Source of the DNA: a virus
Taxonomy: Duplodnaviria; Caudoviricetes
IMG/VR virus record: IMGVR_UViG_3300031088_000782
Location: 224,001 to 288,000 of that record
DNA length: 64,000 nt
Direction: 5' to 3' (one strand)
A program made the translations under genes and the position numbers. Of the stretch, positions 9,593-37,071 are shown in pieces (the stretch's first letter is position 1; every line of letters begins with the position of its first letter). A model generated the notes under the pieces. That model saw nothing but the letters and a program-made list of their open reading frames with translations. It had not been told where the DNA came from and made no database searches.

Positions 9593-9763
9593 AAAACAAA
9601 TTTTTTAAATATTAGAAATTCTTTAGATAGCAATAATCAGTTCTTGTTATAATGCTTTTGTTGAAGATATTGTCTAATTGTTTGAAAATATTTGATGAAT
9701 CTTCATATACAGTTCAAAAATTCGTTAGATAATATATTGTAAAATTTTCAGGGGGAGTTGGGC

Positions 9764-10336: not shown

Positions 10337-10470
10337 CATTGTTTTTAATAAACGATAATTTTGTTGAACTATTGAACAACTATCAAATTCAACTTTGTCA
10401 AGTTTAAATTGTTAAAATATTCATGAAAGATTATATTTTTGAATATTTATGAATTGTGGGTAATTATAGA

Positions 10471-11859
10471 ATGGCTAAGAATAAAACTGTTTACAAATGT
10501 TTGAGCTGCGGTAAAGAATATGTTCGTGAACCTATTGGCAAGTGCTCTTCATGTGGAGCTTTTCAAAATTTCACAGAAGTTCAGGAATCATCTGTCAATC
10601 AAAGCTCCTCACAGGCTGGATTGAAAACCTCTGGGGCTTTGAAACCAAGCACAAAAGCAAGAACAATCAATGAGTTAAAGAATAACCCTATCAGCAGAAC
10701 AAAGACAGGAATTGAAGAGTTCGACAGGGTTCTTGGTGGAGGTTTTGTTGATGCAGAAGTTGTCTTAGTTGGAGGACAAGCGGGAACAGGAAAATCTACT
10801 ATCGCCTTAGATATAGCTTCGAGATATGCAAAACTTGGAAAAACAGTGCTTTATTCGTCTGGTGAAGAATCAGAACAGCAAATCGGATTAAGAGCTTCGA
10901 GAATGGGTATTGTTAATGAAAACATTAAAATAGTCAACGAAACCAGTCTTGAAGTTCTTTTAGGTCATATTGCTGATGAAAAACCTGAATTACTTATTGT
11001 TGATTCTCTTCAAACTCTTGCTTCCAGTGAAATTTCCAGTTCTATCGGATCCATTCAACAATCCAAAGAAGCAGCGCACACCCTCACTCGTTTGGCTAAA
11101 AATGAGAAAATTACAATGATTTTAGTCAATCAGCTAGTAAAGAGCGGCGAATATGCTGGTTCAGAAAGTATCAAGCATATAGTCGATGCTGCATTAATGT
11201 TTGAAAGCGATTCTGAAACACCGTTAAAGTTCCTCAGAGCCGAGAAAAATCGTTTTGGCGACACGAGTGAGGTTGGCATATTCCAACACTCAGAAACGGG
11301 TTTAGAAGAGGTTACAGACCCGAGTGGTGTGTTTATAGACAATGACAACAACGAATCTCTTTCTGGAACGTCATTAAGCTTCATCAGTGAAGGAGTGAGA
11401 CAGATTCCAGTAGAAATTCAAGCATTGGCAAGTTCATCAAATCTTCCTACCCCAAGGAAGCAATTCAACGGAGTTAATTTCAATCGTGGTCAAATTGTTT
11501 GTGCAATTCTTGATAAATTTTGCCGAACAAGACTATATGAGAATGATGTTTTCGTCAATACAATTTCAGGTATCAAAATCAATGATCCTTTAGCTGACCT
11601 TTCAATCGCTGCTTCTCTGTTGTCCTCCCTAAAAAACAAAACCTTCAAAGACAGAACAGCTTTCATCGGTGAATTGAGTCTTACAGGCCAAGTTAGAGGA
11701 GCTTTTATGATTGAAAACAAAATTAGAGAAGCTGACAGATTAGGTTTCGACAGAATAGTTATTCCGAAAACCGCTATGAAGAATCTCAGTAGCAGAAAAT
11801 ACAAAATCAAGGTTGAAACAATTTCTTCTATTAAAGACATTGAGAAAATGCTTTCCTAA
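10471..11859 (+). CDS. radA: DNA repair protein RadA/Sms
   Basis: C4 zinc finger, Walker A GGQAGTGKST, KNRFG motif, Lon-like C-terminal GELSLTGQVR. Confidence 0.95.
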   Translation: MAKNKTVYKCLSCGKEYVREPIGKCSSCGAFQNFTEVQESSVNQSSSQAGLKTSGALKPSTKARTINELKNNPISRTKTGIEEFDRVLGGGFVDAEVVLVGGQAGTGKSTIALDIASRYAKLGKTVLYSSGEESEQQIGLRASRMGIVNENIKIVNETSLEVLLGHIADEKPELLIVDSLQTLASSEISSSIGSIQQSKEAAHTLTRLAKNEKITMILVNQLVKSGEYAGSESIKHIVDAALMFESDSETPLKFLRAEKNRFGDTSEVGIFQHSETGLEEVTDPSGVFIDNDNNESLSGTSLSFISEGVRQIPVEIQALASSSNLPTPRKQFNGVNFNRGQIVCAILDKFCRTRLYENDVFVNTISGIKINDPLADLSIAASLLSSLKNKTFKDRTAFIGELSLTGQVRGAFMIENKIREADRLGFDRIVIPKTAMKNLSSRKYKIKVETISSIKDIEKMLS

Positions 11860-11953: not shown

Positions 11954-12625
11954 ATGGCAATTCCAACGAGAAAACCCCCATCTGGCGCGTCTGACAGTGG
12001 AGACAATAATGACAACAATATGATGGGAAAAACTCCTGTACAGCCCAAACAGAGGCGTACAGGCGACAGTCAGCAACCATCTCAAACTCGTCAACCTGCG
12101 AAACGTAAAAAAGCTCCAGCAAAACGAGACCCATATGCTGAGAGAGCCGTTTATGTTGAGGATAATTCTGAAAAAGATTCAACAAATTATGCTGAAATGT
12201 CAAAAAAGCAGTTAGATTCTGAAGATGATTCAAAGAAACAGAAGAAAGCTCCCGATAAGTATGAAGAAATTGACGTAAGTTCTATTAGCGTATCTGTGGA
12301 CACTGATGCTCTGAACAATCCAGACTTTGCCAAAGACCCTATTACCGGAAAAATTTATCAAAAAATTCCGAAAACAAAAATGGATTCTAATGGTATGCCT
12401 ATGATTCAGACAGATATTGATGATTTAGATCTGGAGGGAGCGGCAAATAAATTCCTTGCTCATCTTCGTGTTCCTCCTTCAAAAGAAGAAATTGAAAAGA
12501 TGCGTCAAGAAAGAATCGAAAGAGCAAAGCAAGAAAGAATTAGACAACAGCAAAGGAAGCAGAATAAAAATCGTTCCGATGCTACACAAGAAGAATTAAA
12601 AAGACTTTATGACCAAAATAAGTGA
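11954..12625 (+). CDS. Hypothetical charged, largely disordered protein
   Basis: 223-aa ORF with GGAGA RBS; no recognisable domain. Confidence 0.7.
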   Translation: MAIPTRKPPSGASDSGDNNDNNMMGKTPVQPKQRRTGDSQQPSQTRQPAKRKKAPAKRDPYAERAVYVEDNSEKDSTNYAEMSKKQLDSEDDSKKQKKAPDKYEEIDVSSISVSVDTDALNNPDFAKDPITGKIYQKIPKTKMDSNGMPMIQTDIDDLDLEGAANKFLAHLRVPPSKEEIEKMRQERIERAKQERIRQQQRKQNKNRSDATQEELKRLYDQNK

Positions 12626-12694
12626 AACATTTTGATTAGAAAAGGTTATGTAACAGTCTTAATAAAATTTAATGAATTCTAGGAGAAACATCTG

Positions 12695-12910
12695 ATGAGT
12701 GGTGGTACTAAAAAAGCTGGCGGAAAAGCAATGCAATTTTTAGGGTTATTGGTTATTGTTGGCTTTGCTGTAGCCCTATTGAGGGTTTTTGATTGGGATC
12801 CTTTTGGTGTAATTGATTGGATAATCAATTGGGTTATCACAATCATCACTGCAATCTCTGACTGGTTCGGTGGAAATCAATACTTCCAAGCATTTACTGA
12901 CAAACGGTGA
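12695..12910 (+). CDS. Small membrane protein
   Basis: AGGAG RBS; two hydrophobic stretches in 71 aa. Confidence 0.65.
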   Translation: MSGGTKKAGGKAMQFLGLLVIVGFAVALLRVFDWDPFGVIDWIINWVITIITAISDWFGGNQYFQAFTDKR

Positions 12911-12973
12911 CGGAATTTAAAAAATTAAAACCTTTTTTCTGTGAAAAATAATTTAAAAATAAATATTGAAAAC

Positions 12974-12980
12974 TGATATT
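12974..12980 (+). promoter_or_regulatory. YTGATATT box
   Basis: cTGATATT 88 nt before ATG 13062. Confidence 0.45.
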
Positions 12981-13061
12981 CGGGGCGTTTCTCTTGATAA
13001 AATAAGAGTAGAAACACCCCGAATATATTTTTGTAAGTAAGTAGATAAAAGGAGAAACAAT

Positions 13062-14045
13062 ATGGCCGAAGAAGGATTTTACACAACTGCTTTCACATCG
13101 CAGGATTTCGTTGAAGGAGATGCGATTGAAAGAGCAGAAGTGTTTGTTGTTGAAGGACAAGGCTTAGTAAATGATGTTGTTGAAAGCAGCTCAGGTAAGT
13201 CTCTGCAGGTTGTTATTGATGCCCATAAAGAATTTAAAGGGAAGCCTATGTATTCTAAAGGTTGGGCACCAGTAGATTCTGCAGTCATCAAAAAAGCACA
13301 AGAGGCACAAGAAAAAGGTATCGCTGTAGATTTCCGTATTGAGACAGTTCGTAATGCCAAAAACACCCGAACTGGCGAAAAGATAGACCGCTCCACGCCT
13401 ATTTCTGAACTTAAAAAAGGAATGGAAAATGCACGCGAAAACGTTATTCATTCTGTTGCTCGAATCAAACTTGCTGATGAAGATTCTTGGACAGACGGAA
13501 TTATGCGAACAAACCCTAAAGAAGACACAAAGAGAACTGGACGAAGCGCACTCGACCTCTCCGATGATGAAATTTCAAGCAACTCAGGAAATTCATCAAA
13601 CTCTTCCGCAAATGTTTCCACCTACACAGGTCTTGAGCCTCAGCCTTGGGCAACTCGAAACAGTGCAGGAGATGTCAATCCCGGATCGCTTGCTGTCAGT
13701 GTTCCTCTTACACTTTACAGTTTCGTAGCAGCATGGAACAAAAACAACGATTCTAATGTAGAGATTTCCGAAAAACAACGAATGGTTTTGACAAAGGCAC
13801 TTCTGTCCGTGTCAAACAAACTTCAAGTTTCAATCTATGAAGGAAAACTTGAATCACCAGATCTGTCTCTTGGAAGCCACACCAGAGCACGAGCCTTAGT
13901 GTTCAATGTTGTTGAAGTATTCTTCCCTATTACAGAGGAAGTCGCTTCAAGCAACGAAAACGTCAAAGAATGGATGAATGAAATCCATGATAAAGCTCTT
14001 GCAATGTGGAAGTGGAGTATTGGAGAGATTGACAAACTTTCCTGA
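13062..14045 (+). CDS. Hypothetical protein (two domains joined by a Ser/Asn linker)
   Basis: AAGGAG RBS, 327 aa, followed by a hairpin. Confidence 0.75.
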   Translation: MAEEGFYTTAFTSQDFVEGDAIERAEVFVVEGQGLVNDVVESSSGKSLQVVIDAHKEFKGKPMYSKGWAPVDSAVIKKAQEAQEKGIAVDFRIETVRNAKNTRTGEKIDRSTPISELKKGMENARENVIHSVARIKLADEDSWTDGIMRTNPKEDTKRTGRSALDLSDDEISSNSGNSSNSSANVSTYTGLEPQPWATRNSAGDVNPGSLAVSVPLTLYSFVAAWNKNNDSNVEISEKQRMVLTKALLSVSNKLQVSIYEGKLESPDLSLGSHTRARALVFNVVEVFFPITEEVASSNENVKEWMNEIHDKALAMWKWSIGEIDKLS

Positions 14046-14100
14046 AATTATTTTTCAAAAAAGTAAAATAAACAACAACTGAATATAAATGCTATAAACA

Positions 14101-14146
14101 AAATAACAGCAATCATTTTCTTTCTGAACTTTGATTGCTGTTATTT
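14101..14146. terminator. Hairpin terminator
   Basis: AAATAACAGCAATCA / TGATTGCTGTTATTT 15-bp stem. Confidence 0.7.
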
Positions 14147-14167
14147 TTATTGTTTAGAAACTAATGT

Positions 14168-14174
14168 TGATATT
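14168..14174 (+). promoter_or_regulatory. YTGATATT box upstream of pilin-like gene
   Basis: tTGATATT 86 nt before ATG 14254. Confidence 0.45.
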
Positions 14175-14253
14175 ATTATCGTGACTGATTCACTATGGTT
14201 GTCTCAAAGTGAGATAATCTAATTTTCAACAACTAGAACAAGGACAGGACGAA

Positions 14254-14556
14254 ATGGCATTTATCAGTAATATTAAAGCTTCATTCGCAACTGATGCTGC
14301 TGTCGAAGCAGAGCGCGACCGTGGTGACCTCGTGCAGACCCTCTTACTCGTAGCAGGGTTTGCCGTAGCCACATTACTTGCAGTAAACTGGTTAAGCACA
14401 GCTATGCTCAACAAGGCCGCAGACGCATCACAGTGCATTCAGGGTTCCAACACATATAACACAGCATCGGCATCTGACAATTGCCAAAGCGCAAACCACG
14501 CAGATAAAAAAGATTTTAAAGATGATGCGGGATATAAAGGACGTTTTAATAACTAA
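14254..14556 (+). CDS. Flp/type IV pilin-like protein (atypical)
   Basis: Charged leader ending ERDRG, then a hydrophobic helix; two Cys; directly upstream of tadC/cpaF/tadB; lacks the canonical Glu+5. Confidence 0.55.
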   Translation: MAFISNIKASFATDAAVEAERDRGDLVQTLLLVAGFAVATLLAVNWLSTAMLNKAADASQCIQGSNTYNTASASDNCQSANHADKKDFKDDAGYKGRFNN

Positions 14557-14603
14557 TAGTGAATAATTAATTTTACTGAAAAATAAAACGTTCTAATACA
14601 CAC

Positions 14604-14640
14604 AAAAAGAGAGATTAGCTTCACCGCTATCTCTCTTTTT
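14604..14640 (+). terminator. Hairpin terminator after pilin
   Basis: AAAAAGAGAGAT / ATCTCTCTTTTT. Confidence 0.7.
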
Positions 14641-14826
14641 GGTCTTTCTTTTTAAATTTTAATAAATTTATTTATCAACATATGTTGTCATTGAAAAACA
14701 TTTATTAATTCAAAGAACAAACATTAACTAAACAATTACATTCAATAAAAATTTTAGAATATTTGAAAAATTATAAAATACAAAATTTAGTTATAATGTT
14801 AAAGAATCTTGTTTTAACAATAATCT

Positions 14827-14833
14827 TGATATT
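14827..14833 (+). promoter_or_regulatory. YTGATATT box upstream of tad operon
   Basis: tTGATATT 52 nt before ATG 14879. Confidence 0.45.
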
Positions 14834-14878
14834 TCATATTGTTAAACTACCACTTAAAGAGAATGAAGAAGGAAATCT

Positions 14879-15784
14879 ATGACTGCTCCTTTTATAATTG
14901 GCGGACTTGTAGCTATAATGGCAGCTTTGGTGATGTATGCGCTGTTTATGCCAAAAGGAAATAACGGACAAGTATTCAGCTCAGAAGAAATGAAAGATTC
15001 AGGAACATTATTGAAAATCATGTCAAGTATTGGCAATGACTTCTACAATGCGCTTCCTGAAGGAATTGTCAAAACAAACAAGCGAGAAAGAGTAAATCCC
15101 CGCGTTGAATCTCTGATTGTCAGATCAGGAAATCCCTGGAATCTTAATGTCAATGAATTCGTCTTTCTCCAATATTTGGGTGCATTCTTAGGATTCATAG
15201 CCGGATGGATAGTCTGGTTTGGATTGAGCGTATTTACAAGCATCCCCTGGTTTGTTGTTGTGGGATTAGTAACCATCTTCGCATTCTTTATTCCCCGAAT
15301 CAAATACAACGACCAAGCAAAAGCAAGAGATTTAGAGTTCAAGCGTCAATTGCCTGAAGCACTCGACTTGCTTATTATTTCTTTGTCTGGTGGTAGGACA
15401 TTTACACAATCAGTTCGTGAAATAATTCCAAATATGAACGAAAGTGTTTTGAAAGAAGAATTCAAAAATATGGTGAAAGCCATCGACACAGGTAGAACAT
15501 TGAACGAAGCTCTTGATACTTTTGCATCAAAGTCACCTAATGAAAGTATCTTAACCTTTATTCGTTCCGTCCAATCAGCTACTGAAGTAAATGCTCCTCT
15601 TGTTGAAACTTTGGAAGCAAGAGCTGATGCGTCACGACAGGAATTCTTCGCTCTCATTCACGAAAAAACAGCCCAGCTTGAATCAAAAATATTCATGGCA
15701 TTGACTCCAACATTGATGCCAGCTGTTATGATCATTGCAATTGCCCCATCCGCATACTCCATGATGAGCACATTAGGAAGTTGA
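14879..15784 (+). CDS. tadC: Tad pilus platform protein TadC (T2SSF family)
   Basis: QLPEALDLLIISLSGG motif, TM segments, adjacent to cpaF. Confidence 0.85.
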   Translation: MTAPFIIGGLVAIMAALVMYALFMPKGNNGQVFSSEEMKDSGTLLKIMSSIGNDFYNALPEGIVKTNKRERVNPRVESLIVRSGNPWNLNVNEFVFLQYLGAFLGFIAGWIVWFGLSVFTSIPWFVVVGLVTIFAFFIPRIKYNDQAKARDLEFKRQLPEALDLLIISLSGGRTFTQSVREIIPNMNESVLKEEFKNMVKAIDTGRTLNEALDTFASKSPNESILTFIRSVQSATEVNAPLVETLEARADASRQEFFALIHEKTAQLESKIFMALTPTLMPAVMIIAIAPSAYSMMSTLGS

Positions 15785-15795
15785 GATAATAAAAA

Positions 15796-18700
15796 ATGGT
15801 AGAATTCACCAATCCTTTCAGCAATAAGAAAAAGAACAAAGTCAATACCGAAGATAATCTTGTCATAGATTCAAGTATAGAGTCATTAGCAGATAATCCT
15901 CCAGCAGAAAACAATAATGAAATAACACTTGAAAATGTAGCTGAAGAGGCACTTAAAGATAACACTCCCCTTTCTCAGCCTATTGTTAATCAAAGTCAAA
16001 CAAGTAATTTACCCAGGCTTCCTAAAATAGCTCCTGCCGATGACAGAGCTTTCGCTGAACTTTTCGAAGAAGGCGACAATGAAGAGAGTGAATTATATAG
16101 GGCAAAACAAGAGACCAATTTTGGTGAATCTTACAAAAAAGAAGTTGAAGATAAGATTATCGAACTTATTGAACGAAACATCAATGATTTAAAAAAGAAA
16201 TACCCAACAGGCGGTATCAAAGCTTCACGTTATATTACAACCGAAGTTCTCATTATGGCACCAGCAGGATATTTTGACAAATATTTGAATGATGTCTCAA
16301 GAGGAGTCGATTATGTGAGGAATAAACTTGCTGATGCTGACAAATCCGACATGATTAGGACAGCACAAGATAATCCTACTGATGATGCACTTCAAGACAG
16401 GGCTTTCTTTCTTGTTCACAGTTTAGCTTCAGAATTTATGAAAAATTCGATGTGGAGAGAAACCAATAGGAGCATTGTTGTTTCGTTTATCTGTAACGAA
16501 ATAGTAGGATTTGGAAGAATCGATCCTTTGTGGAGAGATAGAAGTATTGATGAAATCATGTGTAATGGACCAAAAGACATTCAAATCGAAATTCGTGGTG
16601 AAATTACTAAAGTTCCTGGATGTTACTTCAATAATCAGGCGCATTTGATGGAGTTGATCGACAGACTATATGGTGCAATCGGAAAAACAGTAAGCATGAC
16701 AACAGCAATGGTGAAAGGTAGACTTCACGACAAAAGCCGTATGTATGCTACCCACCCTGTTATCTCTCCAGACGGTCCAAATTTTTCAATTAGAAGACAC
16801 CCAGAGAAGTTTTGGGCACCAAGCGATCTTGTTCAAAGAGGTTCAGCTTCACCCGAAATGATGTCATACATTGGAAATCTCATTTATAAAGGAGCTTCGG
16901 TAGCCATTACAGGAGGCACCCATAGCGGCAAGGAGATGGTGGCTGAAACAAAAGTTCACACCCCTTCTGGAATAACAACAATGGGCGAAATCCAAATAGG
17001 TGACCAAATTTTCGATCATCATGGAAATATAGCTACAGTGACAAATAAATTTCCTCAACCACTTAGACAAGTATACGAAATTTCCTTCAGTAACGGAGAA
17101 AAAAGTTACGTTGGTGCTAACCATAACTGGTTTATCTCTACTCACGAGTCTAGAAAATCCAACAAATACCGCGAATCAAACAAAAAGAATTCCGGCTGGA
17201 CAAGAAAAACTAATTATTCACCAGAAATTATCGACAAAATTGAGAAAAAACTTATAGAAGTTTCAGAAAATGATTATGTTAGTTTTGCAGAAGGTTTTCG
17301 TAATGTTGGATTAAAAACAACAGGATCTAAACACCTTACAAAGCAATTAAAATCTTTAGCAAAAATAAACAGAAAAGTTTTAGCTAAAGATTTCTACAAA
17401 ACACTTCTGGAATACGGAAAGAAAAATAAAAATGATCAGAGGCACAGAAGGTCTCCGTTATTCTCTGTCATGACTACTGAAGAAATGATGAATGTTGGTC
17501 TTTTGCATAAATCTTCGGTTGATGGTCACAAAAGATACAATTTTCATATTCCTGTTCTTGAAAATGCTGTTGAATATGATAATGGTAAATCACCTGAAGA
17601 TCTGCCTATTCATCCTTATTTGTTCGGACTGTGGTTAGGAGACGGAAGCTCAAGCAAGGCTGTTTTGACCGGAGCAGCTGATGATGTTGAATTCTATAAC
17701 AACTATTTTAACTACGCCCCTGAAACAAAAATATTCAAAACTATAGGAAAATCAGATAGTAACTGGAAGATTACTGTCCTCAATTTCAGAAACAATCTTC
17801 TTGAACTGGGTGTTGTCCAAAAAACAACCGCTGAAGGCTCTAAAAAGCATATCCCCGATATCTACAAGTATGCTAGTGTAGAGTCCCGTAGAATGCTCAT
17901 TGCTGGTCTTATAGATAGTGATGGTTGGGCTAACACAAGATGCCCCGGATGGATTTTCACCAATACTAACGAAACTCTTGTTAAAGATTATATTCAAGTT
18001 GCATCATCTTTGGCTTACAAGGTTTCACGAAGTAAGGATAAGCAAAAATATTTTGATTATAAGGGCGAGAAAAAAGCTGGAAAAACTTCATGGGATGTTT
18101 CTATTGTTACTCATGATTCTTTAGCATATCTCCCAAGAAAAATCGAAGCACATAAGAAAATGCTTAAACAATTCCCGGAGAGTTTGGGAAGACAAGATGA
18201 CATTTCTATTGTTGACATTAAACCTGTTGAGGGCAGAATTGAAAACATGGTATGTATTACTGTTGACTCTCCTGACTCTACCTACATGATAGAGAACAGC
18301 TTTATCACCACTCACAACACTTCTTTGTTAAACGCTTTGACAGGCTTTTATAAGCCAAGAGTAAGAATTTTAACACTTGAAGATAACATTGAAATGAAAC
18401 CCAACCCTAAGAAATATTTAGCTGCTGCAATGGAATGTCGCGCTCCTGCTGTTGACAGACCAAGCGATAAAGGGGTTTCTATGAGAGATTTAGTGAAGGG
18501 ATCTTTGCAGTTAAGACCAGATGCTATTATCGTAGGTGAGGTAACTGATGATGCAGCCTTCGATCTTTGTCAAGCATTGAATACAGGTCATGCAGGAATG
18601 TCAACAATTCACGCTAACAGCTCTATAGAAGCTATCCCGCGTATTGCATCTTTGATTGCGCAGGGTGGTTTAGTCACATCAGAAGGAAGCTTAGAGCTTA

Positions 18701-19005
18701 TTTCTTCCGCTTTTGATATCGTTGTCTCTGTTAAGCACTTCCCTCTTGATGGATCCCGCCGAATTGTCTCTGTTGATGAAGTAGGATCAACACCAGTAGA
18801 AATAAACGGAAGACTCACACTACCTGTTTATCCATTGTGGAAGTTCATTGATGAAGGACTAAATGCGGAAGGAAAAGTCATCGGCCATTGGGAGCAGGTA
18901 GGCGATATTAGTAAAGAACGACAAGAACGAAAACTTCTCAACATTGAAGAAAGCTTAAATTGGGAAGATTTGAAAGAACTCAGCAGCATCCCTGGACAGG
19001 AGTAA
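15796..19005 (+). CDS. cpaF: Tad pilus ATPase CpaF/TadA containing an intein
   Basis: GFGRIDPL, DEIMCNG, SIRRH, Walker A GGTHSGK|T split by the intein, TLED, RPDAIIVGEV, NTGHAGMSTIHANS. Confidence 0.92.
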   Translation: MVEFTNPFSNKKKNKVNTEDNLVIDSSIESLADNPPAENNNEITLENVAEEALKDNTPLSQPIVNQSQTSNLPRLPKIAPADDRAFAELFEEGDNEESELYRAKQETNFGESYKKEVEDKIIELIERNINDLKKKYPTGGIKASRYITTEVLIMAPAGYFDKYLNDVSRGVDYVRNKLADADKSDMIRTAQDNPTDDALQDRAFFLVHSLASEFMKNSMWRETNRSIVVSFICNEIVGFGRIDPLWRDRSIDEIMCNGPKDIQIEIRGEITKVPGCYFNNQAHLMELIDRLYGAIGKTVSMTTAMVKGRLHDKSRMYATHPVISPDGPNFSIRRHPEKFWAPSDLVQRGSASPEMMSYIGNLIYKGASVAITGGTHSGKEMVAETKVHTPSGITTMGEIQIGDQIFDHHGNIATVTNKFPQPLRQVYEISFSNGEKSYVGANHNWFISTHESRKSNKYRESNKKNSGWTRKTNYSPEIIDKIEKKLIEVSENDYVSFAEGFRNVGLKTTGSKHLTKQLKSLAKINRKVLAKDFYKTLLEYGKKNKNDQRHRRSPLFSVMTTEEMMNVGLLHKSSVDGHKRYNFHIPVLENAVEYDNGKSPEDLPIHPYLFGLWLGDGSSSKAVLTGAADDVEFYNNYFNYAPETKIFKTIGKSDSNWKITVLNFRNNLLELGVVQKTTAEGSKKHIPDIYKYASVESRRMLIAGLIDSDGWANTRCPGWIFTNTNETLVKDYIQVASSLAYKVSRSKDKQKYFDYKGEKKAGKTSWDVSIVTHDSLAYLPRKIEAHKKMLKQFPESLGRQDDISIVDIKPVEGRIENMVCITVDSPDSTYMIENSFITTHNTSLLNALTGFYKPRVRILTLEDNIEMKPNPKKYLAAAMECRAPAVDRPSDKGVSMRDLVKGSLQLRPDAIIVGEVTDDAAFDLCQALNTGHAGMSTIHANSSIEAIPRIASLIAQGGLVTSEGSLELISSAFDIVVSVKHFPLDGSRRIVSVDEVGSTPVEINGRLTLPVYPLWKFIDEGLNAEGKVIGHWEQVGDISKERQERKLLNIEESLNWEDLKELSSIPGQE
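16933..18318 (+). mobile_element. 462-aa intein with LAGLIDADG endonuclease, class-3 (WCT) signature
   Basis: Inserted between K and T of Walker A; block B ANHNW; PYLFGLWLGDG and LIAGLIDSDG; block F MVCITV; ends ITTHN|T; first residue is Glu. Confidence 0.9.
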
Positions 19006-19012
19006 CTACCAT

Positions 19013-19963
19013 ATGATTTACAGTGATTTTTTCCCATATGTTATAGCGGGAGGGATAACAGCCCTTCTCGTGCTACTCGGAGTACTCATATTTTTTGCTG
19101 TAAAAAGTAGTTCTCAGAAAATGAACTATAACGAACAGCTTGAAGCACTTATTCAAGACGATGATGAAGATCAAGTTCAAGTAAAAATGGGGCTTGTCCA
19201 AAAATGGAATCATTATTGGACAGAATTATTCAAAACCGCAGGATTCGCCAGATATAAAGAGGAAAACAGTTCTGCAGGTAGAGATGTTCTATTCGGAATG
19301 ATTATATTTGCAGTATTAGTATCACTCCTTGCAAGAAATCCTATCATCGGTGTTGCTGTATCTGTTGCTCTCACCTTTGGTATCTCTGTTATCGTCAAAA
19401 ATGTTTCCAATAAAAAATCAGATAGTATCAATTACCAATTACCAGGATTCATTTTCGCCCTCAAAGCTAACATTCAAGCATCAGAAACAAACGAAAGAGC
19501 TATGCTTAAAGTTATTGATAGTATGCCTTCGCCATTATATGAAGATCTTGTTATTGTCAAAAACAAACTGCTTGCCAGTGCATCATTTAAAGAAGCCTTG
19601 GAAAATCTTGCTGAAAAAACCGCTTCAAAAGACCTTAGATTCTTAGCTGCATGTATGATTCAAGCCGCAAACAGCGGAGCAAACCTTGAATCGCAGCTTG
19701 ATTCTATTCAAAAAGTTCTTGAACAAAGAAGAAAAGTAGCTGACGAAATTAATAGAGCTGTCAAATCAGCCCAACCTGCAATCTGGTTAGCATCAGTTGT
19801 TATCCCCGGATTGTTTTTAGCAAGCTACTTCTTCGATGTAAGTTCACGTTCATTCTGGTTTGTTGAACCTATATCCTGGTTTGCACTTATCGCAACAGTA
19901 GCCTGCTACATCGGCGGAATGGCATTAGTGAAAAAACAAGTCGATGGAATTAAGAACCTATAA
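19013..19963 (+). CDS. tadB: Tad pilus platform protein TadB (T2SSF family)
   Basis: QLPGFIFALKANIQA, downstream of cpaF, TM segments. Confidence 0.85.
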   Translation: MIYSDFFPYVIAGGITALLVLLGVLIFFAVKSSSQKMNYNEQLEALIQDDDEDQVQVKMGLVQKWNHYWTELFKTAGFARYKEENSSAGRDVLFGMIIFAVLVSLLARNPIIGVAVSVALTFGISVIVKNVSNKKSDSINYQLPGFIFALKANIQASETNERAMLKVIDSMPSPLYEDLVIVKNKLLASASFKEALENLAEKTASKDLRFLAACMIQAANSGANLESQLDSIQKVLEQRRKVADEINRAVKSAQPAIWLASVVIPGLFLASYFFDVSSRSFWFVEPISWFALIATVACYIGGMALVKKQVDGIKNL

Positions 19964-19983
19964 AATATATTAAATACTTTTAA

Positions 19984-20039
19984 ATTATTGGATTAACTAT
20001 TAAAAATCAGCAAAATTAATTAATAGTTAATCCAATAAT
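19984..20039. terminator. Hairpin terminator
   Basis: ATTATTGGATTAACTATT / AATAGTTAATCCAATAAT 18-bp stem. Confidence 0.65.
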
Positions 20040-20128
20040 GGTTTTTGATAAAATATTAGATAACAATTATAAACAAAATTAAAACAAATTAAAAGCATTA
20101 TAAACATAAAGAAAGAATGTGAAACAAC

Positions 20129-20722
20129 ATGAGAAAAGAACAAATAGAATTTACCATCAATAAAAAATATATTCTCAACTCAAACGTTGTCAAGCATCAT
20201 TTCGAAAAAGCAAAAATTGCATCATACCTGCGAAATCTTGCCTCTGAAGAGGGAATAGAGCGACACCCTGAAAGAGATCTTGCAGACAGAAGACTCAGCG
20301 AAATAAAAGACTTCGCAGCAAAAACCTTGAACAAATCACGAGCACGCAAAAAAATGAACAAACAAGGGGCGGATGAAGAAGAGATTCTGAAAAGACTTGA
20401 CGAAATTGAACAAGAAAGCGGAGAAATCAAAACAACACAAGTTCCTTTCATGTTCACTCATTTCAAAATCACTCTCACAGCCTGTCCTCCGACGAAAAGA
20501 AGGATGGACCCACCGAATCTCTACCCCACCCTCAAAGCCCTCATAGACGGGCTTACAGACGCTTCCTGGTGGGTTGATGATCAATTTGCAAACCTTGTTG
20601 AAGTATCATTCAAATATGGTGGAATTTCTGGAGAAAAGGATTATTTTAAACTTATCCTTGACATAGAAGAAGTAGAAGACTGTTCAGGTTATGTTCTCGT
20701 TCCAGAATTTGTCAAAAGATGA
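20129..20722 (+). CDS. RusA-like Holliday junction resolvase
   Basis: RRMDPPNLYPTLKALIDGL..WWVDD pattern. Confidence 0.7.
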   Translation: MRKEQIEFTINKKYILNSNVVKHHFEKAKIASYLRNLASEEGIERHPERDLADRRLSEIKDFAAKTLNKSRARKKMNKQGADEEEILKRLDEIEQESGEIKTTQVPFMFTHFKITLTACPPTKRRMDPPNLYPTLKALIDGLTDASWWVDDQFANLVEVSFKYGGISGEKDYFKLILDIEEVEDCSGYVLVPEFVKR

Positions 20723-20725
20723 ATA

Positions 20726-21910
20726 ATGATTGAACAACTATTGTTAGAATGGAATCCCAAAAACAAATTTTCGCTCACCGAAGATAAATTAGGATCCCAT
20801 AGAAAAGCATTATGGATTTGTGGAAAAAGCCATGAATACGAATCAGCAATAAGAAATAGAGCTAATGGGTCTCAATGTCCTTATTGTAGCGGAAAACTTG
20901 CTATTGCAGGGGAAACAGACCTAAAAACAACACATCCACATTTGATTAAAGAATGGGATGTTGAGAAAAACACAATTTATCCAAACAAAGTGAAAGCAGG
21001 AAGCAACAAGAAAGTTTGGTGGAAATGCTCTCTCAATCATGAATGGGAAGCTACCCCTAACAATAGAACATCTCAAACTTCCGGTTGTCCTTATTGTAAA
21101 AATAAAAAATTATTATCAGGATACAATGATGCAAAATCTGTTTATCCTCAATATGAAGAAGAATATGATACAGATAAAAACATTGAACAATATAATAAAA
21201 TATTTTTAAACACCAAGAAGAAGTATTGGTGGATTTGCAAACTCGAACATTCTTATGAATCAGCCGGGGAGAAGAAAGTGTTAGGTGAAGGATGTCCGTA
21301 TTGCGTTAACAGAAAAATTCTCAAAGGGTTTAATGATTTGGAAAGTCAATATCCTGAACTAGCTGAACAATGGGATTATGAAAAGAACGTAAGTTTAGTG
21401 CCCTCAGAAATAATTTCAGGGTCTCATACAAGAGTTTGGTGGAAATGCAAAAATGGACATAGTTGGATTACACAAGTGGCATTTCGCGCTACTCACATAA
21501 GAAAATCGGGCTGTCCAGATTGTTCTAAACGAGTATCAAAAGGAGAACAAGAAGTAAGAAAATTTGCCGAAAATATTCTTCAAGAAAAATCCTTAAACAA
21601 CAACAGAAAAATAATAACTCCTTACGAACTTGACATATATTTCCCTGAAAAGAAAATCGCTATTGAATTTAATGGTACCTACTGGCACAGCGATATTCAA
21701 ATACGGAAATCAAGAAACATGTCAGCTGAAGATTATCACAGTCATAAAATAGACAAATGTAGAGAAAAAGACATTATTTTACTCATTGTTTGGCAAGACG
21801 ATTGGGAGAGCAATGCAGATATTGTTAAAAGAGACATTGAAAAAGCCTTGTTGAATAACAAAATTTCTTCAATGTTGAGAAAAACAATTAACGGGGAAAA
21901 AGAGGAGTAA
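20726..21910 (+). CDS. Zinc-ribbon repeat endonuclease, paralog of 1040..2428
   Basis: 4 zinc-ribbon repeats; ELDIYFPEKKIAIEFNGTYWHSD. Confidence 0.75.
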   Translation: MIEQLLLEWNPKNKFSLTEDKLGSHRKALWICGKSHEYESAIRNRANGSQCPYCSGKLAIAGETDLKTTHPHLIKEWDVEKNTIYPNKVKAGSNKKVWWKCSLNHEWEATPNNRTSQTSGCPYCKNKKLLSGYNDAKSVYPQYEEEYDTDKNIEQYNKIFLNTKKKYWWICKLEHSYESAGEKKVLGEGCPYCVNRKILKGFNDLESQYPELAEQWDYEKNVSLVPSEIISGSHTRVWWKCKNGHSWITQVAFRATHIRKSGCPDCSKRVSKGEQEVRKFAENILQEKSLNNNRKIITPYELDIYFPEKKIAIEFNGTYWHSDIQIRKSRNMSAEDYHSHKIDKCREKDIILLIVWQDDWESNADIVKRDIEKALLNNKISSMLRKTINGEKEE

Positions 21911-21911
21911 A

Positions 21912-22391
21912 ATGTCTGATAGATACGTTTATACTGCCAACATGACGAACTTCTTTTCAAGAGAATTATATATGTATAGCCTCGGTGACATTAAATTCAA
22001 AAAACCGATTTCGTTGAAAAAGGTAGCTTATACAACTGCTTTCGTAATTATTTGGACACTTCCTATTATACTTATTTTTGGAATTCAGCTTAATCCATTC
22101 TATTTTGCTATTGTGCTTTTGCCGCCTTTTGTTTTGGGTAATTTTGCTGCTAAGCCTGTATGGGGCGGTAGAGGATTAGTTGATTTTATTAAAACTTTGA
22201 GTGGATTCATTGCTGAACCTAAAGGGTGGACGGATTTGAATGCTACTAATGTATTAGATAAAGAAGTTCTATTCATTGAACAAGAAATTTGGATAAGCCG
22301 ACGAAGAGAATTGTATCTTCTTGCTCAACTGAAAGAGCAGAAAGAGCGTGAGTCTGGAAAAATCAAACCCCGAAAGAAATTGAGAAAGTGA
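21912..22391 (+). CDS. TcpE/VirB3-like conjugation membrane protein
   Basis: MTNFFSRELYMYSLGDIKFKKPIS start, two TM segments, immediately before a VirB4-like ATPase. Confidence 0.65.
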   Translation: MSDRYVYTANMTNFFSRELYMYSLGDIKFKKPISLKKVAYTTAFVIIWTLPIILIFGIQLNPFYFAIVLLPPFVLGNFAAKPVWGGRGLVDFIKTLSGFIAEPKGWTDLNATNVLDKEVLFIEQEIWISRRRELYLLAQLKEQKERESGKIKPRKKLRK

Positions 22392-22397
22392 TAAAGC

Positions 22398-23594
22398 ATG
22401 GCAAACAAGTTTAATTATTCAACAAGTATGTTTATTGGAACTACGACTAATGGTATTGAAATGCCTGTATTCTTTGATACTCATACTCCTATCTTCAACA
22501 ACAACCCGCCTGGAATACTTATTACAGGTCAACCGGGTTCTGGTAAAACATTCTTGGCTATGACTTTGACAGCTATTTGTGCAATTATTGGAAAAATCAC
22601 AGTAGTGCTTGACCCTAAAGGTGATTTTCTTGCTCTCAATGAAATTAAAGAAGATGTTGGAGATATAAGTTTCTGGAATCTGGCAGATAGGAGACAAAAG
22701 GGAATATTAGATCCTTTTTATATGGCTGATGATAAGGGTGATCAATTGGATCTTGTTCTCAGTGTTATTGACATGTTTGTGGGAGGTTTGACTGGCGATC
22801 AGTTGACTCACCTTTCTCCTGTTGTCAAAGATGTTCAAGAAATGCATGTTCCCTCTCTTTTGGCGGTTACGGATGCTTTACAGACTTCGCCTCATTCAAT
22901 AGCTAGAAATTTGGGAGCGCATTTGGATCTTGTTAGAAGATTACCTTTTGCTGATTTGTGTTTCGCACCTGGTTCAAGGAAGAGAAAAAACGTTAAGTTT
23001 GATAGTGGTGTTACTGTTATTACATTGATTGGTCTTGAACTTACTCCTGAGTCGGACAATAATAATGTCAGCCAAACTAACGCAAATAAGAAACGACTTT
23101 CTTCAGCTATTTTCTTTCTTTTGACAGACTTTATTCGAAGAATCATGTACAATGATACTTCTGATAGTCCAAAAACTTTAATTATTGACGAAGCATGGGC
23201 TGTTTTATCTACCCCTGCTGGTGCTGAATGCATTAAATCGGTTGCCCGTCTTGGTCGTTCTAAGCGCCTTGCTATGATTCTTGTTACTCAAAACAATTCA
23301 GATGTGAAAAAGATGAGTATTGAAAACACAATTACAACACGTTTTGCTTTTAAAACAGATCCAACTGAGGCTTCTGACATTGTTGAAGGTATGCAGCTTC
23401 CTATTGGGGAAAGTTTTGAGAATGCTCTTATAGGTTTGAATAATGGAGAATGCCTGTTCAAGGACTTCCAGGGGCGTTATTCTACTATACAGATCAGCGA
23501 TTGGCGTAGAAGCTGGACTGAAGCGTTTGAAACTAATCCTCTTGAAAAAATGCGAGCACAAAAGAAAAAACAAGCGTTGGCAAAGAATAAGTAG
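22398..23594 (+). CDS. Short VirB4/TcpF-like conjugation ATPase (AAA_10-like)
   Basis: Walker A GQPGSGKT, VVLDPKGD, Walker B IIDEAW, RLGRSK..LVTQN. Confidence 0.8.
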   Translation: MANKFNYSTSMFIGTTTNGIEMPVFFDTHTPIFNNNPPGILITGQPGSGKTFLAMTLTAICAIIGKITVVLDPKGDFLALNEIKEDVGDISFWNLADRRQKGILDPFYMADDKGDQLDLVLSVIDMFVGGLTGDQLTHLSPVVKDVQEMHVPSLLAVTDALQTSPHSIARNLGAHLDLVRRLPFADLCFAPGSRKRKNVKFDSGVTVITLIGLELTPESDNNNVSQTNANKKRLSSAIFFLLTDFIRRIMYNDTSDSPKTLIIDEAWAVLSTPAGAECIKSVARLGRSKRLAMILVTQNNSDVKKMSIENTITTRFAFKTDPTEASDIVEGMQLPIGESFENALIGLNNGECLFKDFQGRYSTIQISDWRRSWTEAFETNPLEKMRAQKKKQALAKNK

Positions 23595-23598
23595 ATTC

Positions 23599-23605
23599 TG
23601 ATATT
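23599..23605 (+). promoter_or_regulatory. YTGATATT box upstream of cpaB
   Basis: cTGATATT 73 nt before ATG 23672. Confidence 0.45.
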
Positions 23606-23671
23606 CCTTTATGGAACAAGAACCACAACTACCACTTTATAGCTATTTTATGTAGGAAGGAATTGCTGAGT

Positions 23672-24565
23672 ATGGCATCTAAAGGAAAGAAAGGTCTGAA
23701 AAGTAACGGACTGATTCTCATAGCAATAGGCGTAGTATCTCTTATTCTGTTTGGAGTCGTTTTCTCAGTAGCTTCGAAACTATTTCAGACAGAAACATAT
23801 TACGTTCTTAAACAAGACGTTCCGACGAGAACACAGGTAACAGAAGAAATGCTTGAACCTGTTGTTACATCTGAGGGAACAGCACCAGAAGCAGCTATCG
23901 GTTTAGCTGACGTTCAGACAGGAAATGTTTACACCCAATACCCACTTCTGTCAGGAGATATTCTTACTATGTCTAATGTTGGAGCAATGGAAGACATTTC
24001 TGTTGGTATTCCTGATACTTGGGTTATCACAAACTTCTCAGTAAACGCGGATGATGCTGTTGGCGGAAGAATCCAAAGAGGAACATATTTTGACATTATG
24101 GTCACATCCGATGATGGTTCATTCTATCCTTTTGTCAATGTTCTTGCACTTGACACAACAGTAGATCTCAGCAATGCATCCTCTTCTGAAGCTGCTGATT
24201 CCGAAGAGGCACATGAAGGACAAACCTCACAATATGTTGTTGGTATGTCTCCTGAAAATGCCGCTAAATTACAAAACATTGTCAAAAAGTACAACAATGA
24301 CATCAAACTCGTTCTTTCACCAAGACAGAATGAATACGAGAAACCACAACTTGCTTCTTACAGCGGTAACTTCAAGTTTGCATCAGGTGACGAAACTATT
24401 GCACCAGGACAAGGTGAAGATGGAGAGCAAACTGACTACACATTCACTGATGTTGAACGTGATGCATTCGGAAGACCAGTTGAGAAACTTGAAAACTGTT
24501 CATCAGGAAACTCAAAGGTTGCTGGTGAAGATTGTAAAGACAGTGAAACACAATCTGATGAGTAA
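23672..24565 (+). CDS. cpaB: Flp pilus assembly protein CpaB/RcpC (SAF domain)
   Basis: N-terminal TM, SAF-like YYVLKQDVP, AVGGRIQRGTYFDI, VLALD, VVGMSPENA. Confidence 0.8.
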   Translation: MASKGKKGLKSNGLILIAIGVVSLILFGVVFSVASKLFQTETYYVLKQDVPTRTQVTEEMLEPVVTSEGTAPEAAIGLADVQTGNVYTQYPLLSGDILTMSNVGAMEDISVGIPDTWVITNFSVNADDAVGGRIQRGTYFDIMVTSDDGSFYPFVNVLALDTTVDLSNASSSEAADSEEAHEGQTSQYVVGMSPENAAKLQNIVKKYNNDIKLVLSPRQNEYEKPQLASYSGNFKFASGDETIAPGQGEDGEQTDYTFTDVERDAFGRPVEKLENCSSGNSKVAGEDCKDSETQSDE

Positions 24566-24584
24566 TAGTTTAGATTAAGCAATA

Positions 24585-24637
24585 AAAACCATAGGGCTGT
24601 AGTAGGTTTGGAAACATTCATACAGCCCTATGGTTTT
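24585..24637. terminator. Hairpin terminator
   Basis: AAAACCATAGGGCTGTA / TACAGCCCTATGGTTTT. Confidence 0.7.
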
Positions 24638-24654
24638 GTCTGAAAATACTATTC

Positions 24655-24661
24655 TGATATT
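24655..24661 (+). promoter_or_regulatory. YTGATATT box upstream of cpaE-like gene
   Basis: cTGATATT 132 nt before ATG 24787. Confidence 0.45.
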
Positions 24662-24786
24662 AAAACATGGAAGCGTGAAAACTTCTAAATGAAAACCAAA
24701 AATAATTATTTCTTCGTCTACCACCACGAAGAAGAGGGTAAGATTATTCAGTAGATCACCCAACTTCTGAAAGAAAAGGGAAAAAC

Positions 24787-26142
24787 ATGCCAGTACGTCC
24801 AAAAGCAATATTTGTAGGGCCAGCAAAGCTTGGCGAACATTTAGAGAAATTGAGAAAAGGCTGGGACTTCGTTAGCATTGTGCCAGATATCGCAAGTCTT
24901 TGGAACGGCCTCAACAACCAGACTATTGATGACAATGTTCAGGTAATAATAACCTTAGACGGATTCTTCAAACCAGATTCGGAAGAAGATTCATCATTTG
25001 AGCAGTTAGTTGCCATGATGTCCCCCCATTGTTTCTTCTTAATTGTGTCTTATATGCCAGAATACGAAAGCCAAATGAGATCAAGAATCAGCTCAGAGTC
25101 TCATGCTGTCGGAAATGGTGGAAATGAAGAATACTTTTTCGTTGACCCAAAACGTCCCAACCTGACAATCGACAGAGCACTTGCAGAATATATTAAAAAC
25201 ACTGAAAACAAAGAAGTAGCCGCTATTCTTGATGGAAGAGAAATAGAGCAAGATCCCGCTACACAAGAACTGCAAGAAGTTCAACCAGCTCCTGTAGCCA
25301 CAGATTATAACTTTGATGACATTGAAAGTGACAAGTTGGGACAGGTTGTTGCTATCACATCAAGTAAAGGTGGATCCGGCAAGTCTACTGTTGCAACAAC
25401 CTTAGCAACATATTTAGCTCATTCTTCAATCAACTCCGTTAAAGAAGGACTAGAAGAAAAGCCACTCAAAATCTGTATTCTCGACTTGGACGTTAGGGAC
25501 GGTCAGATTGGATTCTTAACAGGAAACCTTCAGCCTACAGTTCTTCATATGAGATCGCATGGTATTGATCCTCAAACTCTCAGTGAAACAATCATTTACA
25601 GTGAAAGACTGAAAGTAGATTTGCTATTAGCACCTAAAAGACCAAGACTTTCAGATGATACTCCAGCTGAATTCTACTTAGAACTTATTCAATTTTTGAA
25701 ACGATTCTATGATTATGTCATTTTGGATACTTCTGTGAACTATCTTGATCCATTATTGGAGAAAGTTGCTTATCCGATTGCAGATCAAATTATTTTCGTT
25801 TCAGACATTGTTGTTCATTCTGTTTATTCAATGACACGATGGATTCAAGAGGTTACAAAACCTAAGAGTCAGCAGGGAATGGGAATAGACAAAAAGAAAA
25901 TCGGTATTGTTGTCAATAAATCAATGGCGAACATCAGCATGTCAGGCGAAAAAATCGCTAAAAGTGCACTTGGTCTCCCAGTTCTGACAGTTATACCAAA
26001 CAACGCTAAACTTTTGGCACACGCAGCTAACCTTCAGTCAATGGAGCAAGTTCTGAGACATGCAGATATCAAAAACTCTATCAGGCTATTAGCGCGTCGT
26101 ATCGTCGGTAAAAAATATAAACTTACTGATAACGTGTCATAA
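24787..26142 (+). CDS. CpaE/TadZ-like MinD/ParA-family ATPase with N-terminal receiver-like domain
   Basis: Deviant Walker A SSKGGSGKST, ILDLD, YVILDTS, IGIVVNKS. Confidence 0.8.
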   Translation: MPVRPKAIFVGPAKLGEHLEKLRKGWDFVSIVPDIASLWNGLNNQTIDDNVQVIITLDGFFKPDSEEDSSFEQLVAMMSPHCFFLIVSYMPEYESQMRSRISSESHAVGNGGNEEYFFVDPKRPNLTIDRALAEYIKNTENKEVAAILDGREIEQDPATQELQEVQPAPVATDYNFDDIESDKLGQVVAITSSKGGSGKSTVATTLATYLAHSSINSVKEGLEEKPLKICILDLDVRDGQIGFLTGNLQPTVLHMRSHGIDPQTLSETIIYSERLKVDLLLAPKRPRLSDDTPAEFYLELIQFLKRFYDYVILDTSVNYLDPLLEKVAYPIADQIIFVSDIVVHSVYSMTRWIQEVTKPKSQQGMGIDKKKIGIVVNKSMANISMSGEKIAKSALGLPVLTVIPNNAKLLAHAANLQSMEQVLRHADIKNSIRLLARRIVGKKYKLTDNVS

Positions 26143-26175
26143 CAGATTTTCCCTCTTAACGGGCGGAAAAACACA

Positions 26176-26224
26176 CAACACAGGTTCCTAGTGGTAGGGG
26201 AGCCTGTGTTGTTTTTTTTTATTC
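26176..26224 (+). terminator. Intrinsic terminator
   Basis: CAACACAGGTTCC / GGAGCCTGTGTTG followed by a T-run. Confidence 0.75.
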
Positions 26225-33736: not shown

Positions 33737-33821
33737 CAACAAACACCACCAAACAACATCAAAGGAACAATACATTACATATAAGCAAACATAACAAAAC
33801 ACTCATAATAAGACACAAATA

Positions 33822-35370: not shown

Positions 35371-35392
35371 TTTCTTATGAGAGGTTGTTTTT

Positions 35393-37052: not shown

Positions 37053-37071
37053 GATTCTTAAATAGTTCAAT

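Follow-up and report, generated by a model that had tools for sequence, protein, structure and literature searches.

The 64,000-nt stretch of DNA analysed here (in the following, the window) covers bases 224001-288000 of a 309,534-bp IMG/VR record (IMGVR_UViG_3300031088_000782) that is filed as 'provirus'. It contains a block of co-oriented genes in which the genes of a Tad pilus are interleaved with genes of a type IV secretion system (T4SS). With moderate confidence, we read this block as part of a Tcp/MPF-FA-type conjugation system with a split VirB4 that is aided by a Tad pilus for mating contact. The element itself is probably giant (at least 309 kb), capsid-less and plasmid-like, with the block as one of three loci encoding its conjugation apparatus.

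Pfam and NCBIfam scans, together with a Foldseek search in the case of RusA, placed ten genes on the plus strand in the order pilin, T2SSF, CpaF, T2SSF, RusA, endonuclease, TcpE, VirB4, CpaB and CpaE, in agreement with a preliminary description of this sequence. The Tad genes start with a Flp-like prepilin of 100 aa (14254..14556), assigned from its sequence and alignment, which showed no Pfam or NCBIfam match. Its leader ends in DRG, after which come DLVQT and a hydrophobic helix; this motif and two cysteines are kept in the homologues. The leader resembles class III leaders, but is without Glu5 or Tyr6 of the G/XXXXEY processing motif. Two TadB/TadC-type platform proteins follow, the first at 14879..15784 (PF00482, E 9.5e-14, 51.9 bits, cut-off 25.2; four transmembrane (TM) segments) and the second at 19013..19963 (PF00482, E 7.3e-9, 36.1 bits, same cut-off). 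These are the only two T2SSF genes of the 309-kb record, and they flank the gene of a CpaF/TadA-family ATPase with an intein (15796..19005; PF00437 above cut-off with 79.9 bits, Hom_end and LAGLIDADG_3). The best NCBIfam model for this ATPase was TIGR03819, the TadA-family conjugal-transfer-associated ATPase (E 4.9e-42), and its nearest plasmid homologues, at 33-37% identity, are annotated as CpaF.

The T4SS genes are embedded further downstream. TcpE, a VirB3-like membrane protein with two TM helices (21912..22391; PF12648, 39.5 bits, cut-off 29.9), lies 6 nt before the 398-aa C-terminal ATPase half of VirB4 (22398..23594; AAA_10, PF12846, E 8e-52), and it is directly upstream of this half in every locus. 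The Tad genes then resume with a CpaB/RcpC-like protein with an N-terminal TM helix (23663..24565), for which the matches were weak (PF16976, E 5.6e-4; TIGR03177, E 2.5e-7, below cut-off) and which was found only in Tad-bearing relatives. The block closes with a MinD/ParA-type ATPase carrying a TadZ/CpaE-like 185-aa N-terminal extension (24787..26142; CbiA, AAA_31, MinD E 2e-12; TIGR03815 E 1.5e-7, below cut-off) and with a strong terminator at 26175-26220. A GATATT box was detected 47-131 nt upstream of six of about eight transcription units (two units before the pilin, g05 and g07; pilin; first T2SSF; CpaB; CpaE). Six of its 12 plus-strand copies fall within the intergenic 9.3% of the span (binomial P 3.6e-4), so the upstream box that had been noticed before most units was borne out. 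The unit of RusA, TcpE and VirB4 is without an exact GATATT box. The secretin, described earlier as missing, was not matched (PF00263) in the whole 309-kb record (G000) or in two relatives (G001, G002), which fits a Tad system of monoderm type.

To place the block among relatives, an alignment of the VirB4 C-terminal half was used for scanning, which retrieved nine IMG/VR and 11 metagenome loci, and the neighbourhoods were mapped by BLASTP; an IMG/VR scan with the single protein had returned nothing. The order T2SSF, CpaF, T2SSF, (RusA-like), TcpE, VirB4 C-half, CpaB, MinD-like was present in 12 loci (G000, L012-14, L030-35, L037 and L040), i.e. in this record and in 11 further loci from several metagenomes, at 33-100% identity of the VirB4 C-half and a GC content of 0.31-0.50. 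With this recurrence, the order goes beyond a chance arrangement. Where Tad is present, it is interleaved alike; the positions of the two gene sets are thus tied to each other, which supports the preliminary description. Most of these loci also keep the upstream RadA, 223-aa, 71-aa and 327-aa proteins and the pilin. In the case of L035, the genes abut or overlap as one operon, with a gap of 12 nt between the second T2SSF and TcpE and an overlap of 8 nt between TcpE and the VirB4 C-half; L037 is similarly compact. Both of these loci have typical Flp-like pilin genes (...G/ASNSTE) before the first T2SSF. At the expected pilin site upstream of the first T2SSF of L034 (L034:2200-2970), there are three tandem small open reading frames (ORFs) with a repeated C-terminal sequence, which may represent an array of pilin genes translated in the wrong frame.

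The embedding is reciprocal, as Tad-type genes are also found in a second transfer cluster of the genome. There, the gene order is DnaG, a 623-aa protein, VirD4, TcpC, a 129-aa protein with two TM helices, the VirB4 N-terminal half, a GmrSD-like nuclease and a NikA-like protein, followed by a TadE-like protein of 191 aa, a 204-aa protein, PhoH, a 1214-aa VirB6-like protein and a membrane-anchored lysozyme. The TadE-like pseudopilin (genome 42754-43329; PF07811, 30 bits, cut-off 22.9) and its 204-aa neighbour, both outside the window, have the same leader, and the pilin of the block shares with these two pseudopilins the leader motif D[KR]GD.

The preliminary description had proposed a hybrid mating apparatus with a reduced T4SS-like core. 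The hybrid part of this proposal is in line with the conserved co-oriented block in 12 loci; the reduced core had to be given up. Because a cluster with the VirB4 N-terminal half, VirD4, TcpC, VirB6-like, lysozyme and NikA-like genes is present, the T4SS is complete rather than reduced. A search for VirD4/TcpA and VirB6, which had been suggested as a check, found an 811-aa VirD4 coupling protein with three N-terminal TM helices above cut-off (TrwB_AAD_bind 31.9 bits, TraG-D_C 32.1 bits). It adjoins the 645-aa, VirB8-like TcpC (PF12642, 43.6 bits, cut-off 27). The 1214-aa protein with its six to eight hydrophobic segments scored 23.8 bits for TrbL/VirB6, just below the cut-off of 25.9. In addition, the element encodes two more traffic ATPases and a MobC-like protein. 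One of these ATPases is VirB11-like, with its own intein (genome 61461-64274). The other is PilT/TraJ/DotB-like (29685..31409, minus strand; pilT_fam E 1.1e-74, plasmid_TraJ E 3.4e-42), and its gene overlaps that of an 801-aa MobC/Replic_Relax-like putative relaxase (31397..33802, minus strand; PF13814 E 0.0015, 19.1 bits, cut-off 25.3; NF041423 E 3.3e-6; MobC_subf 26.6 bits, cut-off 200); both lie 4-8 kb downstream of the block. This pair is kept in the Tad-less relatives G004 and G005. The idea of the PilT-like ATPase as retraction motor of the Tad pilus was rejected, since relatives without Tad still have it paired with the relaxase gene; it is part of the transfer system, with no specific tie to Tad.

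The VirB4 motor itself has an unusual layout. The gene in the window, earlier called virB4-like, has its alignment to the TcpF model (E 5.5e-38) confined to positions 468-809 of 813 and is therefore half a VirB4. It is the one AAA_10 gene of the genome. Searching the genome with the TcpF model revealed the N-terminal half as a 461-aa ORF at genome 39537-40922 (TcpF positions 6-428, E 1.6e-17), 206 kb away from the C-terminal half. This N-half is a separate ORF of 453-478 aa in all five related records, so that the split is kept in all six genomes, this one included. In a library clustered at 50% identity, about 40 of the best 47 representatives of the N-half are stand-alone proteins of 445-492 aa, and fused forms of about 820 aa rank next. 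Fused full-length relatives (P0131-P0134, 820-835 aa) show about 40% identity to the C-half and 31% to the N-half, and no fused form was found in two IMG/VR scans. Since separate N-halves are present in all relatives, stand-alone N-halves prevail and fused forms appear at lower identity, the sequences indicate a split that is old, derived and widespread. About 120 clusters of the C-half were counted in the protein database and about 45 of the N-half in the 50%-identity library, and the Walker A and B residues are invariant across 25 C-half homologues. A further group of proteins (P0121-P0130, 750-850 aa) was first a candidate for fused VirB4 and was rejected, as the extra length of these C-halves is due to an intein that follows GSGK in the Walker A motif. 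Only 2.8 kb separate the two halves in G004 and G005, where the N-half is the downstream one. This reversed order implies that a plain fission of the gene at its site was not the origin of the split, or that the genes were rearranged afterwards. In these two genomes (L016:9556-15337 and L026), TcpE, the C-half, the MinD-like gene, two small genes and then the N-half form one cluster.

The distribution of the Tad genes among relatives gives further insight. Seven loci (L015-20 and L036) have only TcpE, the VirB4 C-half and the MinD-like gene, which lie among gyrase and thymidylate synthase genes. One of the Tad-less relatives, G003, is a complete genome with direct terminal repeats. No T2SSF was detected in G003, G004 and G005, and no TadE in G003 and G004. 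The two pseudopilin genes, which lie between the NikA-like and VirB6-like genes in G000-G002, are gone from exactly that slot in G003-G005. As the Tad genes are absent from both loci together, the pilin, platform, ATPase, CpaB and pseudopilins were gained or lost as one set. In these relatives, the T4SS retains the MinD-like gene as well as the PilT-relaxase pair. In a tree of the VirB4 C-half, the two Tad-less clades are placed inside a clade (support 88/95) with the Tad-bearing L034, L035 and L037. This tree was rooted on the distant L038, a long branch, and its well-supported branches force only one change. The nesting of the Tad-less clades, with L038 as outgroup, favours an ancestral Tad with one or two losses. 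Tad is thus probably an accessory that was ancestral and later lost. In terms of the preliminary description, in which a Tad pilus makes contact for the T4SS-like core, the pseudopilins inside the other T4SS cluster support the connection, whereas the two sublineages that keep TcpE, the VirB4 C-half and the MinD-like gene without Tad show that a T4SS can be kept without it.

The sequences show the identities of the genes, the split of VirB4, the conserved interleaving and the occurrence of the Tad genes as a full set or not at all. For the function, the following mechanism is proposed. The core would be a monoderm T4SS of Tcp/MPF-FA type with VirD4, TcpC, TcpE, a VirB6-like channel protein and a wall hydrolase, to which a MobC-type relaxase-like protein with a NikA-like helper and the PilT/TraJ-like and VirB11-like ATPases would also belong. 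Its VirB4 motor is made up of two polypeptides, the N-terminal 461 aa encoded beside VirD4/TcpC and the ATPase of 398 aa encoded behind TcpE. Woven into it at the genetic level is a secretin-less Tad (type IVc) pilus module consisting of the Flp-like pilin, two T2SSF proteins, CpaF, CpaB and the TadE/TadF-like pseudopilins from the other cluster. The Tad pilus would make or stabilise the contact with the recipient, perhaps drawing recipients in by retraction, and the T4SS would move the relaxase-bound DNA. The MinD/TadZ-like ATPase could position or recruit the machine; its probable target is the free VirB4 ATPase half, since it accompanies the gene of this half even where Tad has been lost. 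The reciprocal embedding, the shared leader motif, the operon-like packing and the deep persistence of the arrangement argue for a shared function. The loss of Tad in two lineages suggests that the pilus is an accessory, as is the thin pilus of R64, and not the channel. In R64 and PAPI-1, type IV pili aid transfer or are required for it (PMC12857230).

Several points weigh against this pilus-assisted conjugation. The claim is drawn from genes, and two of the assignments, relaxase and VirB6, scored below the curated cut-offs. The pilin matches no Flp model and does not have the usual Glu5, and no prepilin peptidase (PF01478, Peptidase_A24) was matched at E <=0.1 in G000, G001 and G002; processing of the prepilin by a host peptidase is what we infer. 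Two sublineages, with seven loci and the complete G003 among them, keep the T4SS without Tad, so the pilus is not essential to the machine and could instead help the host cell to adhere. Also, Tad loci are often plasmid cargo (PMC6668835). Finally, the genes of RadA, the OB-fold protein and the RusA-fold protein are interleaved as well, so co-location here does not always mean one machine.

Some of these points lead to the rival reading that survives best, namely that the two systems are co-located but functionally independent, with Tad as cargo by which the host cell adheres or forms biofilm and the shared block as a result of genome-family history only. Two sublineages in which Tad was lost and the T4SS retained speak for it, as do the unrelated DNA-repair genes that are interleaved (RadA, RusA-fold) and the TcpE-VirB4 unit without the GATATT box that precedes the Tad units. 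Tad is moreover the type IV filament that is most often on plasmids and most often transferred (PMC6668835). However, interleaving persists down to 33% VirB4 identity and over 31-50% GC, and the spacing in L035 is tight, with 12 nt from the second T2SSF to TcpE and an overlap of TcpE with the C-half of VirB4. The pseudopilins are located inside the other T4SS cluster and not beside the pilin, and among the sampled relatives Tad was only ever found around TcpE-VirB4. We therefore regard independence as unlikely, while still giving it some weight.

A closer union than mating contact can also be imagined. It is rather improbable that Tad and T4SS form one physical apparatus, in which the TadZ-like ATPase recruits the VirB4 ATPase half to the Tad platform and in which DNA could not pass the wall without the (pseudo)pilus, whose role would go beyond contact. 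If true, a Gram-positive-type T4SS would for the first time be part of a conjugation machine that bears a pilus. Somewhat more doubtful is a single chimeric translocon, in which the Tad platform and a short (pseudo)pilus make up a wall-spanning conduit or piston for the T4SS substrate and the VirB4 ATPase half docks via the TadZ-like ATPase, like the PAPI-1-type model transferred to a monoderm. This would explain why the VirB4 ATPase half, without its own N-terminal domain, is always found between the T2SSF/TcpE and CpaB/MinD-like genes and why the pseudopilins adjoin the VirB6-like gene, and a chimera of type IV pilus and VirB4/VirD4 was proposed for PAPI-1 (PMC12857230). Against it, the Tad-less relatives keep an otherwise identical T4SS set with both VirB4 halves and the MinD-like ATPase, which indicates that the T4SS has its own channel, and a VirB6-like protein, TcpC and a hydrolase are present. 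Very unlikely is an apparatus that mainly delivers protein toxins or effectors to neighbouring cells instead of the DNA of the element: on its two sides, the block does have an RHS toxin gene (2568-8939) and a gene for an ADP-ribosyltransferase-like protein (26316-27524) that shares an N-terminal motif with the 192-aa protein at 9758-10336, but these toxin genes are not kept beside the block in relatives, whereas the coupling protein, the NikA-like protein and the relaxase-like protein are conserved with the system.

Besides the Tad and T4SS genes, the block contains genes that may be linked to DNA processing, i.e. RadA, the RusA-fold gene and three unassigned ORFs. At the head of the conserved block is a RadA/Sms recombination ATPase (10456..11859, plus strand; NCBIfam TIGR00416, 426.6 bits, cut-off 403), which is syntenic in L012, L013 and L030. 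It is followed by a charged low-complexity protein of 223 aa (11954..12625, plus strand) without Pfam or NCBIfam match, with a GATATT box 47 nt upstream and with weak homologues at the equivalent place in the same three loci. The hydropathy scan predicted two membrane helices for the next protein, of 71 aa (12695..12910, plus strand), which has syntenic homologues in L012-L014, L030-L034 and L040. The third ORF encodes 327 aa (13062..14045, plus strand), and its AlphaFold2 (AF2) model, with a pLDDT of 66.8, has an OB fold in its N-terminal part (residues 25-142) and a domain of helices in its C-terminal part. Its matches were generic only (Foldseek E of about 0.03 to SSB and AspRS; VIA Z 5-8 to OB folds), and a PDB profile search gave none; from the model, it is possibly a binder of single-stranded DNA. 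Homologues of this protein adjoin TcpE/VirB4 in Tad-bearing and Tad-less relatives alike. The three unassigned ORFs, which the preliminary description took as possible further components of the apparatus, are all syntenic in Tad-bearing relatives, and only the 327-aa protein is also kept in Tad-less ones; together with RadA and the RusA-fold protein, they may process DNA instead of being structural parts.

Between the second T2SSF and TcpE, in most relatives as well as here, lies the gene of the 197-aa RusA-fold protein with a helical insert (20129..20722, plus strand; AF2 pLDDT 84). No match was obtained at the sequence level and the PDB profile search reached only E of about 0.7 to RusA; the fold search settled the assignment (Foldseek E 4e-5, probability 1.00), with E. 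coli RusA as all of the top seven matches. In the alignment, the motifs D-x2-N-x5-K-x3-D and DD are kept. The adjacent gene encodes a DUF4379 zinc-finger-array endonuclease-like protein (20726..21910, plus strand; four copies of PF14311, E 1.3e-61). It is missing from this slot in L012-14, L031-33 and L040 and present in the same slot in L030, a sporadic pattern that is that of a homing endonuclease, so that the gene is probably a mobile insertion. In L030, the DUF4379 gene occupies the matching intergenic slot at L030:8595-9449, at 57% VirB4 identity and 50% GC. A second paralogue of this endonuclease-like protein is found in the window at 1040-2428. The intein of CpaF is of LAGLIDADG type, 462 aa long (nt 16933-18318), and follows GGTHSGK in the Walker A motif, as determined by alignment to an intein-free orthologue of 591 aa. 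It is not present in relatives and, together with the patchy DUF4379 gene, this points to both as mobile insertions. Walker A inteins were detected in three ATPase families of this element family, i.e. in CpaF, in the VirB11-like ATPase (genome 61461-64274; L022:13461-16274) and in the VirB4 C-half of relatives (P0121-P0130). The PilT-like gene encodes 1023-1028 aa in L014, L032 and L040 vs 574 aa here, and may carry an intein in these loci. At the borders of the block, the 192-aa protein upstream of RadA (9758-10336) and the ADP-ribosyltransferase-like protein of 402 aa that is encoded after the MinD-like gene (26316-27524) have the same N-terminal motif K(Y/F)HIND..EVKPC.AT, so genes with this start bracket the transfer block.

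Regarding the element as a whole, the gene content of its family includes gyrase, a clamp loader, DnaG, 67 tRNAs, VirB4 and VirD4. The window has a GC content of about 35%, and its plus strand carries every gene from 18 to 27,524. A phage was considered and rejected, as Terminase_6C and HK97 capsid, the two Pfam families searched, gave no match in six related genomes and this VirB4 type was not found in any cultured phage. When the block was compared by megablast with the plasmids of PLSDB and the phages of INPHARED, no match was obtained, and Rfam gave none for the window. The GTDB species-representative genomes returned two spurious short matches only; thus, the family was not seen among binned cellular genomes. 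The exact VirB4 C-half is also recorded in the protein database on a contig of 681,645 bp, and the contigs of relatives measure 504-828 kb; possibly, the 309,534-bp record is shorter than the element, or the element is integrated. The array of 67 tRNA genes lies outside the window (genome 145134-160000) and includes one with anticodon TTA, which makes it a UAA suppressor, and another whose anticodon loop is odd. Within the window, the 14-kb stretch at 34000-48200 is without any ORF above 250 aa and has many small plus-strand ORFs. Its strand asymmetry is very strong (GC skew +0.33 to +0.40; T 36%, C 13%), and no sizeable repeats were found in it. An alternative genetic code was rejected for this stretch, as it is not opened by reassignment of any single stop codon. 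A possible reading is a leading region of conjugation that consists of small genes.

Conjugation by Gram-positive-type T4SS is described as pilus-free, and how donors search for and hold recipients is poorly understood. Here, widespread giant uncultivated elements (contigs of 0.2-0.8 Mb) keep a Tad module woven into such a T4SS, and the supposedly indivisible VirB4 is made as two proteins. This offers a natural system for type IVc pili in mating, for the cooperation of separate VirB4 domains and for the role of a MinD/TadZ-type ATPase in a T4SS. It would also offer a transfer mechanism for Inocle-like giant elements, which were reported only with VirB4 and VirD4.

In the literature, no published description of a Tad pilus with a split-VirB4 T4SS was found. 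The hybrids in a T4SS review involve type IVb pili (R64, PAPI-1) and a type VII secretion system (pRAW), none with Tad (PMC12857230). In gene content, the only level of this comparison, the element resembles the Inocles of oral Streptococcus (Kiguchi et al. 2025, PMC12340149), which have 245-395 kb, about 32% GC, gyrase, DNA polymerase III, tRNAs and, in all of them, VirB4 and VirD4; that paper mentions neither a Tad pilus nor a split VirB4. The Hodor megaplasmids of Bacillota (Yuan et al. 2026, PMC12934698), of more than 300 kb and with VirB4, VirB6 and VirD4, differ by Rep_3, ParABM and a MOBH-like relaxase, and their description mentions no Tad, pilus or TcpE. Phage 0305phi8-36 has an operon of relaxase and AAA_10, with no pilus module. 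The Tad-like loci of the actinobacterial 'helicase/secretion neighbourhood' are, like the Tad genes here, of the secretin-less monoderm type, and they provide the best NCBIfam match of CpaF (TIGR03819; E 5.1e-55 with the intein-free orthologue) as well as that of the MinD-like protein to TIGR03815, but all of these scores are far below the curated cut-offs. VirB4 and TcpE are not known to belong to the described neighbourhood.

The likeness to R64 (IncI1, a thin type IVb pilus with a Dot/Icm-like T4SS) and to the PAPI-1 island of P. aeruginosa (a type IVb pilus with VirB4 and VirD4) consists in a filament on a conjugative element with VirB4/VirD4 and, with regard to TraJ of IncI, in a PilT/TraJ-like ATPase. 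They differ in their diderm hosts, type IVb pili, T4SS of MPF-I or integrative and conjugative element (ICE) type and separate pilus cluster, whereas here the pilus is of Tad type (IVc), has no secretin and is interleaved both ways. As the filament genes are of CpaF/T2SSF/TadE type and the T4SS is of TcpC/TcpE/TcpF type, these systems are analogues and not a class to which this element belongs. In the case of Tcp of C. perfringens pCW3 and MPF-FA systems (e.g. B. cereus pE33L466), TcpE lies directly upstream of a TcpF-type VirB4 as it does here, and TcpC, a hydrolase and VirD4 are shared, as would be a VirB6-like protein and a putative relaxase of replication-relaxation type. In pE33L466 and in the nearest cultured plasmid (from Nocardiopsis, 34% identity), VirB4 is a fused protein of about 846 aa, encoded in an ordinary Tcp-like cluster with no Tad genes nearby. 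Compared with pCW3 and MPF-FA, the present system has its VirB4 split 206 kb apart and its genes spread over three loci, with three T2SSE-family ATPases and a Tad module added.

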